From: a virus
Virus genome (UHGV): UHGV-0278151
Reading direction: 5' to 3' (one strand)
Length of the DNA: 20,723 bases
Under the pieces are notes generated by a model, which did no database searches, had not been told where the DNA came from, and saw only the letters and a list, made by a program, of their open reading frames with translations. This document shows positions 15,258-19,305 of the stretch, piece after piece. The translations under genes were made by a program, and so were the position numbers. The number at the start of each line of letters is the position of its first letter. Position 1 is the stretch's first letter.

Positions 15258-15533
15258 TCACCTCAACAATGGAAAGATTTTTGTGACGTTCCCGCGTGCG
15301 CGTATCACCAGCACGCAGAACAGCAGGTTAAAAAACACTTCCAGCCAGCCCGTTGCTAACGGGCGACCACACAGATAGCTGAGGGGCGCAAAGGCATACA
15401 GCAGCATCAGCAGCCAGGCCAGCCATGACATCAGCGGTTTGTGTCTGGAGTCACGACGACGATAAAAAAAGAGCGTCAGCACGATAACCGTGCATAACGC
15501 CACATTCAGTAATCCGGGAAGGTTACTTAACAT
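15258..15533 (-). CDS. Holin-like small membrane protein (about 3 TM, 91 aa)
   Basis: MLSNLPGLLNVALCTVIVLTLFFYRRRDSRHKPLMSWLAWLLMLLYAFAPLSYLCGRPLATGWLEVFFNLLFCVLVIRARGNVTKIFPLLR has three hydrophobic segments and a charged C-terminus. A GGAGGAGG SD is present, and the gene is translationally coupled to its neighbours directly upstream of the endolysin. Confidence 0.7.
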   Translation of the reverse strand: MLSNLPGLLNVALCTVIVLTLFFYRRRDSRHKPLMSWLAWLLMLLYAFAPLSYLCGRPLATGWLEVFFNLLFCVLVIRARGNVTKIFPLLR

Positions 15534-15915
15534 TGCCGCCTCCTCCGCCCCGCAGGCGCGAGAACAGGCCGGACACCAGTGATGCGATATCCTGCTGGTG
15601 GATGAACGACAGAATCTTCACCGACACCACCGCCACCAGCACCGCACACAGTGCATCCGCAGATGTACCGTCATAACCTGTTTTTGATGCAATCCAGGCT
15701 GACAGTACACGCGCCCCCAGTACACCAACAATGAACGACACCAGAAAATGTGCCGCCACACGCCAGGCTGAAATCTTCTGCGGCATCGTTGCCACAAACA
15801 ACGCCCCGGCGAACGCACCAAACACAATCCCGAAATCCGTTCCGGTAAACAGCCCGAATACCGTCGCCCCGCCGAGCGCCGCAGCCGTGCCGGAACCGGA
15901 TAAGGGTTCAGACAT
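15523..15915 (-). CDS. Holin/antiholin-like membrane protein (130 aa, Gly/Ala-rich TM segments)
   Basis: MSEPLSGSGTAAALGGATVFGLFTGTDFGIVFGAFAGALFVATMPQKISAWRVAAHFLVSFIVGVLGARVLSAWIASKTGY... AGGAGA lies 6 nt upstream of the ATG at 15915. It is the first gene of the lysis cassette and resembles LydA-type holins in composition. Confidence 0.65.
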   Translation of the reverse strand: MSEPLSGSGTAAALGGATVFGLFTGTDFGIVFGAFAGALFVATMPQKISAWRVAAHFLVSFIVGVLGARVLSAWIASKTGYDGTSADALCAVLVAVVSVKILSFIHQQDIASLVSGLFSRLRGGGGGNVK

Positions 15916-15930
15916 ACTTTTTCTCCTGTA

Positions 15931-15955
15931 AATAAAAAAGGGCCACCAACGGCCC
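15931..15955 (-). terminator. Rho-independent terminator between the TerB module and the holin
   Basis: The minus strand reads GGGCC gttggt GGCCC TTTTTTATTT, and a second hairpin (AAAGGCA-8nt-TGCCTTT, 15972-15993) lies just upstream. Confidence 0.8.
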
Positions 15956-16002
15956 ATAAAAACACCCCATCAAAGGCACCCGCAGATGCCTTTTGTGTGG
16001 TG

Positions 16003-16155
16003 TTATTCAGATTTACGCAGTAAAGGCCGGAGCACGACCAGCGCCATCGCCACCAGCACACCATCTGCCAGCACCGACATCAGCCGTCCGGTGAAATCCA
16101 CCACCACTACCAGAAACAGCAGGATGGCAGCCAGCACAAGGCGCGCACTTTTCAC
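16003..16155 (-). CDS. Small two-TM membrane protein (50 aa) translationally coupled to the TerB-like gene
   Basis: It is not in the ORF track (under 60 aa). The GTG at 16155 overlaps the TerB-like stop (CTGTGA), with GGAG 8 nt upstream. The product is VKSARLVLAAILLFLVVVVDFTGRLMSVLADGVLVAMALVVLRPLLRKSE*, with two clear hydrophobic helices and a basic tail. Confidence 0.55.
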   Translation of the reverse strand: MKSARLVLAAILLFLVVVVDFTGRLMSVLADGVLVAMALVVLRPLLRKSE

Positions 16156-16577
16156 AGGTACTGCTCCAGCGGCAACTGCAACGCCTGTGCAATTTTCTTG
16201 AGCTGCACTTCTTCATCAGGACCGATGCCGTCCTGGTCAGCAATATCCAGACACAGACACAGCACGTTAACTGCATCATCAGTACCGGCAACATCAGCCA
16301 GCTGACGAAGGGCTTCGGCATTGGCAGAACGCGGTGACGCTTCATAACGGGCGCGGATATTTGCACTCATTTGTGCAATCTCACCCGAGAACGGCGCAAA
16401 GGCAGGAAGTGCTGCAATGGTTTTCTCCAGCACAGCGATTTCTTTCGCATCACAGGTGCCGTCGGCGAATGCTATGGAATACGCACCCCAGACGGTCGCC
16501 TCCACTGCATCGCGGTTCTCCATCTTCTTCACTTCGGTAATGGCCTTGCGGGTTTTCTTTTTGAAAATACCAAACAT
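16152..16577 (-). CDS. TerB-like (tellurite-resistance TerB fold) protein
   Basis: 141 aa, MFGIFKKKTRKAITEV...GAYSIAFADGTCDAKEIAVLEKTI...LCLCLDIADQDGIGPDEEVQLKKIAQALQLPLEQYL. It has the two A-x-ADG-x-x-D/E-x-x-E repeats and the N-terminal MSFF/MFGIF-K motif of TerB. An AAGGA SD precedes the ATG at 16577. Confidence 0.7.
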   Translation of the reverse strand: MFGIFKKKTRKAITEVKKMENRDAVEATVWGAYSIAFADGTCDAKEIAVLEKTIAALPAFAPFSGEIAQMSANIRARYEASPRSANAEALRQLADVAGTDDAVNVLCLCLDIADQDGIGPDEEVQLKKIAQALQLPLEQYL

Positions 16578-16596
16578 CGTGACTTTTCCTTTTAGT

Positions 16597-16681
16597 GGGT
16601 GAGCCTGCGCCCGGGGGTGACCAGCCCACAGAGAAAGTCACACTGACCATCCCGTAAGCTCACCCCTGAAAGGCTCTGTGG
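16597..16681 (-). promoter_or_regulatory. Structured 5' leader of the TerB-like gene (two interleaved 8-bp GC-rich helices)
   Basis: Helix A pairs 16626-16633 (ccacagag) with 16674-16681 (ctctgtgg). Helix B pairs 16597-16604 (gggtgagc) with 16658-16665 (gctcaccc). The arms interleave (B-left, A-left, B-right, A-right), so they form either a pseudoknot or mutually exclusive folds. They end about 10 nt from the SD. Confidence 0.5.
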
Positions 16682-16788
16682 TTTTTGATGTGCGCCGGGC
16701 GTGGCGCAAAGAAATGAAATAAGACTTACCTGAAATTAAGGTTAATCTGAGGATTTAAACCATTTTTAAAGCTTAGTAATATCAACTC

Positions 16789-16867
16789 GTCTCCTGAAGG
16801 AGACAGATACTTATGATTCTTCATGGACTTTGTCCCGCGGCGTTAATCCGACGGCCGCGCTTTTTTT
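16789..16867 (+). ncRNA. Candidate plus-strand small RNA (about 80 nt) antisense to the late-operon direction
   Basis: TTTAAA (16754-16759), a 17-nt spacer and TAATAT (16777-16782) form a promoter-like signal. The predicted transcript has a 5' hairpin GTCTCC-tgaa-GGAGAC (16789-16804) and a terminator CGCGGC-12nt-GCCGCG-C-TTTTTTT (16836-16867). Confidence 0.45.
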
Positions 16868-16902
16868 GCGCCATATTCATCGCTAACTTACATGGCATTG
16901 CC

Positions 16903-16937
16903 ACACGGGCATTATCAGTGTCCGTGTTTCTTTTTTT
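16903..16937 (+). terminator. Second plus-strand intrinsic terminator
   Basis: ACACGG-13nt-CCGTGT followed by TTCTTTTTTT. Confidence 0.6.
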
Positions 16938-16949
16938 AGGATTCAGAAT

Positions 16950-16974
16950 AAAAAAAACCGCCCGGTGGAGGCGG
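16950..16974 (-). terminator. Minus-strand intrinsic terminator downstream of the tRNA-like gene
   Basis: The minus strand reads CCGCC-tccaccg-GGCGG followed by TTTTTTTT. It is convergent with the two plus-strand terminators. Confidence 0.75.
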
Positions 16975-17242
16975 TAAAGGATGTATTTCCAGGTTTTGCT
17001 TAATATATGAATAATCTCAATGTCATGGTGTTATTTACAACACCAGAATGATGCATCACCGACCCTGCCAGGAAATATAAAATCTCCGCCGAAAATGCAC
17101 CATTCTGCTGCCGTAAAAAAATCAGCACTGCGGCTACACCCGACCCCAAATCATAGCCAGAGAACAGAATGTTTTTAACAATCTACCCCCACGTAATAAA
17201 AAAATACGTCAGTGCCGTCACTATAAGGCGTATTTCAAATGT

Positions 17243-17318
<76 letters not shown>

Positions 17319-17446
17319 TTTTATTGCCACATCCGTAACAACAGTCGACAGGAATAATATACATTCAGAATCAGCCGCCTTAGCTAATTGTGCAACCATC
17401 TGCTCTTTGCAAGTGCACTTAACGTCCTGCGCCACTTTTCAGGCAT

Positions 17447-17469
17447 AAAAAAACCCGCTCAGTGGCGGG
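17447..17469 (-). terminator. Intrinsic terminator (copy A of a 25-bp repeated terminator)
   Basis: The minus strand reads CCCGC-cactga-GCGGG-TTTTTTT. A second 8-bp hairpin (AAGGCACC-attaa-GGTGCCTT, 17490-17510) lies just upstream on the same transcript. Confidence 0.75.
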
Positions 17470-17482
17470 ATCTTTTGATAAA

Positions 17483-17594
17483 AACGACAAAGGCACCATT
17501 AAGGTGCCTTTTACACAGGGGCAGCAGGCTTGTCATCACCTCATCGCTACTCCTGGCTTCCTGTTCGGAAGTCTCACAAGTCCCATCAGGGTAC
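17483..17594 (-). ncRNA. Candidate small RNA (about 85-145 nt) from the TTGACA/GATACT promoter to the tandem terminators
   Basis: The predicted start is near 17594. The transcript has an internal hairpin CTTCC-gaaca-GGAAG, then the 17510-17490 hairpin with a U-rich tail, then the 17469-17447 terminator. There is no convincing ORF, only ATG AGG TGA and a 25-codon frame with a poor SD. Confidence 0.4.
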
Positions 17595-17600
17595 AGCGAC

Positions 17601-17629
17601 AGTATCAGCCAACACACTATGTGTGTCAA
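17601..17629 (-). promoter_or_regulatory. Strong sigma70-type promoter TTGACA-17-GATACT
   Basis: The minus strand reads TATA TTGACA cacatagtgtgttggct GATACT gtcgctg. The hexamers are those of lambda pL. The spacer contains the inverted repeat ACACAC-tat-GTGTGT. A perfect palindrome ATCGAATTCGAT (17641-17652) and a 10-bp hairpin lie upstream. Confidence 0.6.
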
Positions 17630-17664
17630 TATAAATTCATATCGAATTCGATAATCGTTTTCGA

Positions 17665-18066
17665 TTATCGATACAGATAAGCCATCCCTATCCCGTGCAA
17701 TACCGCCCGTTTAATATTCTCAAACTCATCTTCCGCAATCATAGGAACAATATAATTTCGTCCCTCCCAGGTTCTGGTTTTTATGCGATCCAGTCGGCTC
17801 AATGAAACCGTCATCAACATGTCACATTTTACCCAGCAAGTAATATGCTCATTACCAGGTATGGGGTTTTCTGATAACTCATGATGGCAATCTCTGCGAG
17901 GGAGCGGTTCAGTAGTGCTTATTGGTACCACTGTTACCAATTGATTGTTGTGCCTGTTTCTGGACACGACCACCACTGGCCTGACCTTGACTATTTCCGG
18001 AACAACCATTCCCCGAAAATCACACATTAAAACAGAACGAACAGACGGCTGATACTTTAATACCAT
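17665..18066 (-). CDS. PemK/MazF-fold toxin-like protein (YifN-like), with no adjacent antitoxin gene
   Basis: 133 aa from the ATG at 18066: MVLKYQPSVRSVLMCDFRGMVVPEIVKVRPVVVVSRNRHNNQLVTVVPISTTEPLPRRDCHHEL...WVKCDMLMTVSLSRLDRIK. This is the MazF/PemK signature (G/S-x-L-x-x-DF ... E-x-x-K-x-RP-x-VV-S ... V-x-VVP-x-ST ... D-x-x-x-TV). The SD is weak (AAGAGA). Confidence 0.7.
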   Translation of the reverse strand: MVLKYQPSVRSVLMCDFRGMVVPEIVKVRPVVVVSRNRHNNQLVTVVPISTTEPLPRRDCHHELSENPIPGNEHITCWVKCDMLMTVSLSRLDRIKTRTWEGRNYIVPMIAEDEFENIKRAVLHGIGMAYLYR

Positions 18067-18170
18067 AAATCTCTTTGCCTGATAATGACGACTTGTGAAC
18101 TCCACTACAAACAAAATGATTCTGCTGAACAGGCAGTTTCGCACTATACATTATAACCTGTTAAGCCAAC

Positions 18171-18193
18171 AAAAAAACCCGCTCGGCGGCGGG
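18171..18193 (-). terminator. Intrinsic terminator (copy B); candidate tR' about 50-70 nt downstream of the candidate late promoter
   Basis: The minus strand reads CCCGC-cgccga-GCGGG-TTTTTTT. It matches copy A at 17447-17469 in 23 of 25 positions, and the two differences lie in the loop. Confidence 0.75.
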
Positions 18194-18247
18194 ATTTGCT
18201 TACTTTGCCATCGAGTACAAAATCGGCAAAATATCAGATTTGCACGA

Positions 18248-18276
18248 AATATATGCCTTTTAATCTACTTTTGCAA
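18248..18276 (-). promoter_or_regulatory. Candidate late promoter pR' overlapping the 3' end of the Q-like gene
   Basis: The minus strand has TTGCAA (18276-18271), a 17-nt spacer and TATATT (18253-18248). The predicted +1 is the A at 18241. The initial transcribed region contains cTGaTATTTT, a -10-like element of the kind that causes sigma70-dependent pausing at lambdoid pR' promoters. Confidence 0.5.
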
Positions 18277-18949
18277 CACTTTGCTTTGAAAATGCCGTCT
18301 TTTGTTCTGAACGTGTTCTCATCACAAACAATAAAGCCTCACTATCCAGCCGGTGGAAAATGTGTTTCATTGCAACCCAGTGACCAGTAAATGTTTTGGA
18401 CCAGTTTTTTGTTGTTACTCCCGCCAGTAATGCCAGTTCCTGATATTCATAAGTTTCACGCCCAGCTAGCTCACTCTTCACATCCTGTGCCGCCAGCCAG
18501 ATTAATTTTTTCAGGCGCTCCCGTGTTTTCTCCGCAATTTTTCTGGTACCAGATTGCGCGTTAAATTCATTCCACGCCCACTGTGTTATCGCAATCTGGT
18601 GTTCCCAGCAAATGCTGCCGCTGTAACACCACAGCAACCAGGCTTTATAGTGTTCTTCAAGAGACAGAACCGCCCGTCGCCATGATGATGTCGAAAACTC
18701 AACCTGACTTACCAGAGGAATTGACGTCCTCTTTGCCAGCGATTGTTTCCCCGGGATTGGTGGATTATCCCGCGTTATCATTTTTCCGGTCACTTCATCG
18801 CGGTACCGGATTTTTTTACGCCTGTAACGCCCTGTATCAAACATGGCATTCTCCTGCCAGGCTTCAAGCTGACCTTTTGTTGCCCCACTCAAATCGGCGG
18901 TGGCAATAATGAGCTGCTCACGAACAAACTGTAAATACTGGTTATTCAT
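18260..18949 (-). CDS. Late-gene antiterminator Q, QuuQ-like long form (229 aa)
   Basis: It sits directly after rusA with an ATGA stop/start overlap at 18946-18949, and GGAG lies 5 nt upstream. A promoter and terminator follow it. The size and the DUF968-Q adjacency match Qin ydfU-quuQ. The sequence is MNNQYLQFVREQLIIATADLSGATKGQLEAWQENAMFD...EEHYKAWLLWCYSGS... The family assignment is from memory and position only. Confidence 0.55.
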   Translation of the reverse strand: MNNQYLQFVREQLIIATADLSGATKGQLEAWQENAMFDTGRYRRKKIRYRDEVTGKMITRDNPPIPGKQSLAKRTSIPLVSQVEFSTSSWRRAVLSLEEHYKAWLLWCYSGSICWEHQIAITQWAWNEFNAQSGTRKIAEKTRERLKKLIWLAAQDVKSELAGRETYEYQELALLAGVTTKNWSKTFTGHWVAMKHIFHRLDSEALLFVMRTRSEQKTAFSKQSVAKVD

Positions 18950-19305
18950 GCGCACTCCAGCCCTGTGATTTTTATCCCCAACCGACCACCAGGAACGACC
19001 TGACCGCGCACAATATTGATTTCATCAAACTGCTCGTCGTCGATAAGCAGTCCCGCATACGTCAGCGCATCCAGCGGTGCTTTCAGAATATTGTCCAGGT
19101 CACGACGGCGCTTATCCGGCGGCTCTGCAATGATCTTTATCGCCAGCCTTCCGGACAGGTTTAATTTCAGCCGCTGCTGGCGAACAATAAGCGCCACATC
19201 ACGGCGATAACGCTCACCGGCTTTTGATACAAAATATGTGCTGCCACGACGACGCCAGTAGGTGTTCACCGTCGGCGGGTAAGGCAAAACAAACTCTATA
19301 CGCAT
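18946..19305 (-). CDS. rusA: Holliday junction resolvase RusA
   Basis: 119 aa, MRIEFVLPYPPTVNTYWRRRGSTYFVSKAGERYRRDVALIV...PPDKRRRDLDNILKAPLDALTYAGLLIDDEQ... It carries the conserved P-P-S/T-x-N-x-Y and DRRRRDLDN motifs of RusA. Confidence 0.9.
   Translation of the reverse strand: MRIEFVLPYPPTVNTYWRRRGSTYFVSKAGERYRRDVALIVRQQRLKLNLSGRLAIKIIAEPPDKRRRDLDNILKAPLDALTYAGLLIDDEQFDEINIVRGQVVPGGRLGIKITGLECA

Follow-up and report, generated by a model that had tools for sequence, protein, structure and literature searches.

A putative small RNA gene opposing the late operon next to the lysis cassette of lambdoid Escherichia coli prophages, with a paralogue in the E. coli core genome

Within the late operon of a lambdoid prophage, on the strand opposite to that of its neighbors, lies a short unit that is very probably a genuine sRNA gene. 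With somewhat better than even confidence we interpret it as an independently transcribed sRNA gene: a protein-free "moron" whose product most likely acts in trans as a base-pairing regulator or sponge. The unit is part of a 20,723-nucleotide stretch of viral DNA (UHGV-0278151; hereafter the window) and had been proposed earlier from inspection of the letters of the DNA, without database searches (hereafter the sequence-only reading). The evidence that raises it above chance consists of comparative data and of the mapped 3' end of a paralogue in E. coli K-12. We infer transcription of the window's own prophage copy from its sequence, and chaperone binding, dependence on Hfq or ProQ and a trans mode of action by analogy. 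Antisense, convergent sRNAs at moron sites are a known kind, and the family to which this unit belongs is absent from Rfam, from the K-12 annotation and from the literature searched.

Positions 16600-17100 of the window are 100% identical to positions 1768077-1768577 of E. coli SE11 (NC_011415.1), and the source of the window is a lambdoid prophage of that strain. Every annotated gene around the unit (Q, PemK/MazF, TerB, DUF3927, two holins and an M15 peptidase) is carried by the minus strand, and the unit is situated within the late operon, with the cargo region downstream of Q on one side and the lysis cassette on the other (Table 1). A terminator scan of positions 15500-18500 returned 13 terminator-like sites, against an expectation of 3.2 +/- 1.9.

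Table 1. Predicted elements of the sRNA unit and annotated features of the surrounding late operon, in window coordinates
Feature	Position	Strand	Description
Shared 184-nt module (upstream region, promoter, RNA)	16684-16867	+	BLAST, 52 distinct loci; query positions 56-239
Sigma-70-type promoter	16754-16782	+	-35 TTTAAA 16754-16759, 17-nt spacer, -10 TAATAT 16777-16782; read from sequence
Predicted primary small RNA, 79 nt	16789-16867	+	5' hairpin, open variable region, mini-hairpin, terminator
5' tetraloop hairpin GUCUCC-UGAA-GGAGAC	16789-16804	+	6 bp; G16789 is 7 nt after the -10
Open variable region AGAUACUUAUGAUUCUUCAU	16805-16824	+	Mostly unpaired in folds; candidate seed
Conserved 3' module with terminator T1	16825-16867	+	Mini-hairpin GGAC-UUU-GUCC 16825-16835, terminator stem-loop 16836-16859, seven U 16861-16867
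Back-up terminator T2	16893-16937	+	Mini-hairpin GGCAUUGCC, stem 16903-16927, T-run to 16937; found by scan
Facing intrinsic terminator	16949-16975	-	Stem 16975-16957, 7 pairs, T-run to 16949; found by scan
TerB	16152-16577	-	Downstream of the unit in the late sense; followed by DUF3927, two holins and M15 peptidase
tRNA remnant	17254-17311	-	Between the PemK/MazF-like ORF and the sRNA unit in late order
PemK/MazF-like ORF	17665-18144	-	Annotation; second in late order
Antiterminator Q	18260-18955	-	Annotation; first in late-transcription order

The promoter of the sequence-only reading, TTTAAA-17-TAATAT directed against the neighboring genes, is present where it had been placed. It matches 8 of the 12 consensus positions and is missing from the scan list because this falls below the threshold of 9 of 12; taken by itself, a match of this quality appears to be within chance expectation. 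Across the prophage and core-genome copies (alignment A1), the -35 TTAAAC and the T, A, A and T of the -10 TAnnAT are invariant, and the spacer is always 17 nt long, with a sequence that differs among the four variant classes described below. Hexamers conserved over a variable spacer give the locus the appearance of a working promoter, and hexamers at 17 +/- 1 nt that are conserved in homologues are what would be expected of an independent sigma-70 unit.

An RNA of about 80 nt had been predicted to start from this promoter, and three lines of evidence agree with it: the covariance of the family, the end of the homology block at the T-run and the 3' end of the K-12 paralogue. The predicted fold of the 79-nt RNA comprises exactly the elements listed in Table 1 and has a free energy of -26.6 kcal/mol (z = -3.16; one of 200 shuffled sequences was as stable), and the family covariance model, R1, scores 103 bits on it. 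The 5' tetraloop hairpin lies where it had been drawn, its shape being kept in relatives by compensatory changes at a constant distance from the -10. An open sequence was expected downstream of it, and some 20-30 nt are indeed largely unpaired in the folds, which contain there only a weak 4-bp AUGA/UCAU hairpin (16813-16824); this open sequence is wholly different between the prophage types and the core copy, and its flanks are conserved. The terminator described as a GC stem followed by seven T (T1) was recovered as well, and the terminator of the paralogue has a Term-seq 3' end in K-12. T1 itself has the GC stem and the seven U of an intrinsic terminator, the in vivo 3' end being that of the K-12 paralogue, and it was missed by the terminator scan because its loop and bulge are larger than the limit of the scan. 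The features generally described for terminators of Hfq-binding sRNAs, a U-tail of at least six, a hairpin and a U- or AU-rich open stretch, correspond here to the run of seven U, to the mini-hairpin GGAC/GUCC and to UUCUUCAU lying upstream.

Two further terminators follow the predicted 3' end, both of them anticipated from the sequence and both returned by the scan. The back-up plus-strand terminator, T2, is kept in relatives, where it shows one compensatory and two wobble changes and retains the GGACUUUGUCC prefix; it is a second, diverged copy of the 3' module in tandem with the first, and the match of model R1 to it is weak (19.2 bits with E 0.08, and at most 25 bits in relatives). In type B, T2 has a mini-hairpin of its own with the same GGACUUUGUCC, and it ends in seven U, while type-B T1 has a poor U-tract (CUACUUUUC) with four U. 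Because of this weak T1 U-tract, type-B variants probably make mainly a longer RNA of ~150 nt; the window copy, with its seven U at T1, should yield mainly the 79-nt form. The minus-strand terminator facing the unit has a stem that is conserved in relatives and a loop that is variable, and it ends a late-sense module consisting of tRNA and a small ORF (STnc100-like). Since no plus-strand gene lies upstream in the prophage, the pair of plus-strand terminators makes sense only if the conserved promoter fires.

Relatives of the unit were collected with a pattern inside the terminator, which gave 78 viral contigs and six genome loci, all from Escherichia or Shigella except for one contig labelled as a Bacillota MAG. 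They form four variant classes, namely type A (the window), type B (the commonest, also in phage vB_EcoS-683R6), a single type D and the core-genome type, and all family members are recovered by model R1 with 77-107 bits. Conservation among related prophages had been named as a test of the proposal, and a conserved unit was found in ~70 loci. By BLAST (52 distinct loci), homology with the window extends in most loci over the 184-nt module and stops, in the commonest variants, at the T-run of T1, which indicates that the transcription unit acts as a module of its own. Across the family the 3' module hardly varies, partly as a consequence of the collection, the relatives having been found by a terminator pattern; the core-genome copy, found independently by BLAST, is ~90% identical over it. 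The 5' and 3' variants are combined differently from locus to locus (L025 and L029 are examples), and the family exchanges these two modules by recombination. Confined to Escherichia and Shigella, the family is also young, and shared ancestry may account for part of its conservation. The most conserved part is the 3' module and not the putative seed, a distribution atypical of core sRNAs and typical of AgvB/AsxR and PasA.

The 5' hairpin varies in sequence among these relatives and keeps its pairing. It occurs as GUCUCC/GGAGAC, GUCCCC/GGGGGC (GGGGAC in one variant), GGCUUU/AAAGCU and CUCC/GGAG, and in all variants it starts at a constant distance from the -10. In a model-guided alignment of 19 distinct sequences, compensatory changes affect four of its six pairs, 98.7% of cells overall are paired as compared with 39-53% when the partners are slid, and the observed covariation score was reached by none of 500 shuffles; these figures lean towards the structure, as the sequences are related to one another and were aligned by fitting them to the model. 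The terminator of the 3' module contributes one compensatory pair (C-G to U-A). On the minus strand, the G.U pairs of the 5' hairpin and of T2, in the window and in relatives, would become A.C mismatches, which points to a constraint on the plus-strand RNA. An apparent A-U to G-C double change found in three variants (GAUAC/CAUGG to GAUGC/CACGG) was excluded from the covariation, as it lies outside plausible helices and is a single linked event.

The core-genome member of the family provides the link to experimental data. A 47-nt stretch covering the terminator is ~90% identical in 5350 of 5426 complete E. coli genomes, and in K-12 the paralogue sits between yodB and serU. There the promoter reads TTTAAA-17-TATGAT and the 5' hairpin GGCUUU-CAAA-AAAGCU; the open region is unrelated to that of the window, and the 3' module is conserved. 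Its RNA is predicted to measure ~88-90 nt (MG1655 2043092-2043181, +), a position at which NC_000913.3 has no annotated feature. In two data sheets of a Term-seq study, an "orphan" plus-strand 3' end, that is, one without an assignable annotated gene, is listed at MG1655 2043181, exactly at the terminator of the paralogue (Adams et al. 2021, PMC7815308). This is direct evidence, from the paralogue, that the family terminator generates a 3' end in living cells, and on the strand predicted. It does not prove that transcription initiates independently: yodB is located 283 nt upstream in the same orientation, and the 3' end could stem partly from yodB read-through. The literature searched contains no named K-12 sRNA and no RIL-seq chimeras between yodB and serU, and no start site for the paralogue was found in the Cappable-seq data searched. 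We regard an unannotated small RNA gene at this place of the K-12 core genome as probable.

Comparison with known small RNAs gave likeness of kind and no relative by sequence. A search of Rfam 15 returned no plus-strand match at the gathering score, nor any at E up to 10 on positions 16600-17100; the same search recovered AsxR in Sp5 at 88 bits. Weak matches to CyaR and sroB fell on the minus strand at the facing terminator, below threshold, and were discarded as a resemblance of architecture only. Identity with PasA, PasC, PasD2, STnc100 or AsxR was likewise rejected, sensitive blastn having yielded chance matches only, and model R1 has no match in the PasA and PasC (L008, L009), AsxR (Sp5) or EcOnc33 loci. 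The sequence-only reading had compared the RNA with the prophage-encoded sRNAs of EHEC and K-12. This comparison stands as far as kind and layout are concerned (Tree et al. 2014) and fails for descent, no sequence or structural homology to AgvB or DicF having been found.

The closest parallels in layout come from Sakai, in many of whose prophages convergent sRNA genes occupy the moron site downstream of PR'; two of the products, AsxR and AgvB, are reported to be trans-acting anti-sRNAs, and AgvB, AsxR and EcOnc03 all join a variable 5' part to a conserved 3' part (Tree et al. 2014). Like AsxR (RF02703), AgvB (RF02702) and EcOnc03, our unit belongs to the moron region that follows Q and PR', is oriented against the late operon, and combines a promoter of its own (predicted here) and an intrinsic terminator with a variable 5' and a conserved 3' part; its antisense, convergent position between Q/PR' and the lysis genes is the one that AsxR and AgvB occupy. 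These RNAs are carried by prophages, as is the unit, and are expressed in lysogens, as is predicted for it. AsxR and AgvB measure 51-60 nt, lack a 5' hairpin and have a known sponge activity against FnrS or GcvB, in contrast to a predicted 79-nt RNA with a 5' hairpin, and the ~42-nt conserved 3' region shared by the AsxR and AgvB Rfam models has no match in the unit. STnc100/PasD (RF02076), of ~170-206 nt, represents the opposite, late-sense partner of such convergent pairs, and Rfam places STnc100 converging on AsxR in the Stx2 prophage Sp5. The RF02076 model has no match in the window, where the STnc100-like segment is mostly deleted, and a weak match in relatives on the strand opposite to the unit: in type B, a sub-threshold late-sense hit (22.9 bits, E 0.008) ends at the minus-strand terminator. 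An STnc100-like match that meets the antisense unit in this way suggests a late-sense RNA converging on an antisense sRNA, as in Sp5.

PasA and PasC (EcOnc51/52) of EPEC E2348/69 resemble the unit in other respects, as they too are antisense to late genes immediately upstream of a holin-lysozyme cassette, measure ~80 nt and have a longer read-through form that extends to a tandem second 3' module, as predicted for the unit. PasA exists in a major 85-nt and a minor 236-nt form, and its variants have a common 3' end and divergent first ~40 nt (Pearl Mizrahi et al. 2021; Zhu, Shabalina and Storz 2026 preprint). PasA/PasC often have TerB and RusA as neighbors, and TerB adjoins the unit too. The window unites three traits of the PasA/PasC type: an antisense gene placed just ahead of the lysis genes, an intrinsic terminator and, as a prediction, a longer read-through form. 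There are also differences: the PasA promoter is of a near-consensus TTGACA type and PasA is possibly processed from a longer transcript, whereas the unit has a promoter matching 8 of 12 positions; the Pas RNAs are backed by northern blots and RIL-seq, whereas the unit is predicted; and the Pas RNAs are enriched in pathovars, whereas the family of the unit is represented in the core genome of nearly all E. coli.

A third parallel, EcOnc33 of Sakai Sp6, is an Hfq-crosslinked RNA of ~71 nt (Tree et al. 2014). Like the unit, it is antisense, has a Rho-independent terminator and lies between cargo (an esterase) and the lysis genes; identity was dismissed on comparison with the Sp6 locus, the sequence of which is different. 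Opposition of a short RNA to a major phage operon is also the arrangement of lambda OOP, a 77-nt RNA with its own promoter and terminator. OOP is located in the early right operon, is antisense to cII and acts strictly in cis via RNase III; we know of no homology between it and the unit.

On this basis we propose that in the lysogen the host sigma-70 RNA polymerase would start at about 16789 and stop at T1 (16867), releasing the 79-nt RNA, and that a fraction of the polymerase would read through to T2 (16937) to give ~149 nt. The 5' hairpin would shield the 5' end, the conserved 3' module with its mini-hairpin, GC stem and U-tail would be the scaffold for stability and chaperone binding, and the variable open stretch (~16805-16824) may be the base-pairing seed with which the RNA would act in trans in the lysogen, either by base pairing or by sponging host or prophage RNAs. 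A trans or sponge role is favored because a variable 5' part sits on a conserved 3' part, as in AgvB/AsxR/EcOnc03 and in the PasA variants; it is also the established or presumed mode of AsxR/AgvB and of the Pas sRNAs, which occupy the same prophage position. Within the window, the best duplex with a possible trans target (-26.9 kcal/mol) did not differ significantly from those of shuffled seeds (-26.4 +/- 2.0).

The RNA is unavoidably antisense to any Q-antiterminated late transcript, and its position is strikingly constant. Each of ~70 prophage loci has the unit in antisense orientation and, read in the late sense, immediately upstream of its lysis cassette, ~185-260 nt from the start of the holin or TerB gene, and this is the same with three types of cassette (lambda-type S/R, holin-holin-M15 and TerB-DUF3927-holins). 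On the far side from the cassette follow a conserved small ORF, the minus-strand terminator, tRNA genes and Q. The main rival to our interpretation, which we hold to be unlikely, starts from this constancy and makes the unit a guard of lysis acting purely in cis: the promoter would fire head-on into the late unit, and the RNA, a perfect complement of the late leader, or its transcription as such would suppress leaky read-through coming from the tRNA and moron promoters, by transcriptional interference or duplex cleavage, until Q-modified polymerase overrides it. It gains from the independence of the antisense position from cassette type, from the three terminators standing back to back at the locus and from the presence of the unrelated AsxR, PasA/PasC and EcOnc33 in the same antisense position of other prophages, since the sharing of one position by unrelated sRNA families suggests that the position itself matters. 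A purely local function is harder to reconcile with the core paralogue, which has neither a late operon nor lysis genes in its vicinity and yet keeps promoter, hairpin and terminator, and it creates no obvious need for a hypervariable 5' region on a conserved scaffold; moreover, AsxR and AgvB, at the equivalent site, are reported to act in trans (Tree et al. 2014). A trans-acting RNA and a guarding role in cis are not mutually exclusive.

More doubtful still is the view that the locus makes no functional RNA at all and is a mosaic junction at which the terminators of several modules have gathered, with chance hexamers in AT-rich DNA and a conservation due to recent ancestry and to hitch-hiking with the lysis cassette. 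The promoter score below the scan threshold, the confinement of the family to Escherichia and Shigella and the visible recombination of modules among loci are all compatible with such a junction. It would leave a pair of plus-strand terminators without purpose in a region where all genes are on the minus strand, unless the plus strand is transcribed, and neutral drift is not expected to produce compensatory changes in a hairpin or to keep hexamers and spacing across a divergent spacer. The end of the homology block at the T-run and the 3' end that the core copy gives in vivo also speak against it and for a transcribed sRNA gene.

We consider it very improbable that the RNA is the antitoxin of a type I system whose partner would be the small hydrophobic ORF of the minus strand at 17000-17149, in a convergent arrangement such as that of txpA/RatA or bsrG/SR4. 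This 49-codon ORF, which contains a hydrophobic stretch, does adjoin the unit convergently in ~65 loci, and read-through past T1 and T2 would make the 3' ends of the two RNAs overlap; the predicted ends, however, are 12 nt apart (T2 ends at 16937, the minus-strand T-run at 16949) and do not overlap, the ORF matches nothing in Pfam or PHROG and is not conserved at its start and C-terminus, the core copy of K-12 lacks an ORF partner of this kind, and duplexes with the ORF region have energies that shuffled seeds also reach. A gene for a small protein, either the 54-codon ORF 16813-16977 (+) or a 7-codon frame (ATG GAC TTT GTC CCG CGG NNT TAA), is the least credible reading, for although AAGGAG precedes the ATG at 16813 by 10 nt and the 7-codon frame exists in most variants, the AAGGAG is sequestered in the hairpin stem, the 54-codon ORF crosses three terminators, lacks a Pfam or PHROG match and has ATT in place of its ATG in type B, and the mini-ORF, which starts with ACG in three of the variants, is not preceded by a Shine-Dalgarno sequence in the window.

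Returning to the preferred reading of a trans-acting sRNA gene, we can extend it by a speculation that we put forward as doubtful. The family might be a modular "seed-cassette" sRNA, in which a conserved promoter and 3' scaffold flank a hypervariable seed exchanged by recombination, and the core copy next to the serU attachment tRNA might be a domesticated remnant that is expressed in K-12; in addition, lambdoid prophages might generally need an antisense "guard" unit at the lysis site, the RNA of which would have been co-opted repeatedly for regulation of the host in trans. The finding of several unrelated RNAs in one antisense slot makes part of this testable, as a cis function, such as the silencing of lysis genes in lysogens, might exist besides the trans regulators. 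If transcribed, the unit would represent a new sequence family among the moron-site sRNAs that link lysogeny to host gene regulation, and would point to an unannotated core sRNA gene in nearly all E. coli, marked by a Term-seq 3' end so far unexplained. Unlike the EHEC and EPEC examples, the family occurs in the commensal strain SE11 and in many non-Stx prophages.

The plus-strand small RNA unit also occurs in the Q-to-lysis region of phage SerU-LTIIb (KU052038.1), a prophage that integrates at serU. The copy in the E. coli K-12 core genome lies about 285 nt downstream of serU, and together these two positions fit the idea that it is a last remnant of an ancient prophage integrated at this tRNA gene. 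A 5' segment of the K-12 copy, AAAGCUGCG, is able to base-pair with the terminator's left arm (CGCGGCUUU), and in the minimum-energy fold this pairing replaces both the 5' hairpin and the terminator. This alternative fold may be peculiar to K-12, since the corresponding site reads GCUGGG in most other E. coli.

Two further elements were located upstream of, or over, the plus-strand promoter. The imperfect inverted repeat overlaps the promoter -35 and, because it is retained in both the prophage and the K-12 core copies, may represent an operator for some regulator. The GC-rich hairpin, about 45 nt upstream of the -35 within the 184-nt module shared by most related prophages, is conserved, its loop differing among variants. 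It is followed by no T-run on either strand, and could be a late-mRNA leader structure or a protein-binding site.

Features of the window and of related loci (L004, K-12 core-genome copy of the unit; L006, SerU-LTIIb)
Feature	Location	Strand	Description
GC-rich hairpin	16693-16711		GCGCC-loop-GGCGC
Imperfect inverted repeat	16741-16761; L004 1412-1432		GGTTAAT-N6-ATTTAAACC
Small-RNA-like late-sense segment	17045-16949	-	directly before minus-strand terminator
49-codon ORF	17000-17149	-	TTG start, partly hydrophobic; tblastn conservation
tRNA remnant	17254-17311	-	Rfam tRNA model, 48.5 bits
PemK/MazF-like toxin ORF	17665-18144	-	Pfam PF02452, E 7.6e-14
Two near-identical terminator-like hairpins flanking the toxin ORF	18193-18178 and 17469-17454		CCCGC-N6-GCGGG, then seven T
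K-12 core copy of the small RNA unit	L004 1459-1548 (MG1655 about 2043093-2043182)		
Small RNA unit in SerU-LTIIb	L006 3087-3166		Q-to-lysis region

The late-sense strand facing the unit also looks like a small RNA: a 5' hairpin (UGGUGUUG-UAAA-UAACACCA) is followed by an open stretch rich in A and U, and then by a terminator whose U run is long. Its Rfam matches were all sub-threshold (CyaR and sroB, 20-21 bits), and in type-B relatives, the commonest prophage variant class, an STnc100-like sequence takes its place (22.9 bits at L005 4251-4447). About 65 related loci keep the 49-codon ORF, which lies there between the tRNAs and the minus-strand terminator. Neither Pfam nor PHROG gave a match for it, and some genomes annotate it as a longer ORF reading through the terminators. 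This candidate can be read either as coding or as part of the late-sense RNA.

At the site of the tRNA remnant, related prophages carry intact tRNA-Gly and tRNA-Thr genes, sometimes accompanied by Arg and Ile. The match in the window spans model positions 8-63 only, and ARAGORN called no tRNA there. Because its 5' part is unlike that of the relatives, sequence comparison suggests that the gene is chimeric or truncated.

Between Q and the tRNA remnant lies the PemK/MazF-like ORF as cargo, with no adjoining antitoxin gene in the SE11 annotation. The flanking hairpin upstream of the ORF may be the tR' terminator, duplicated.
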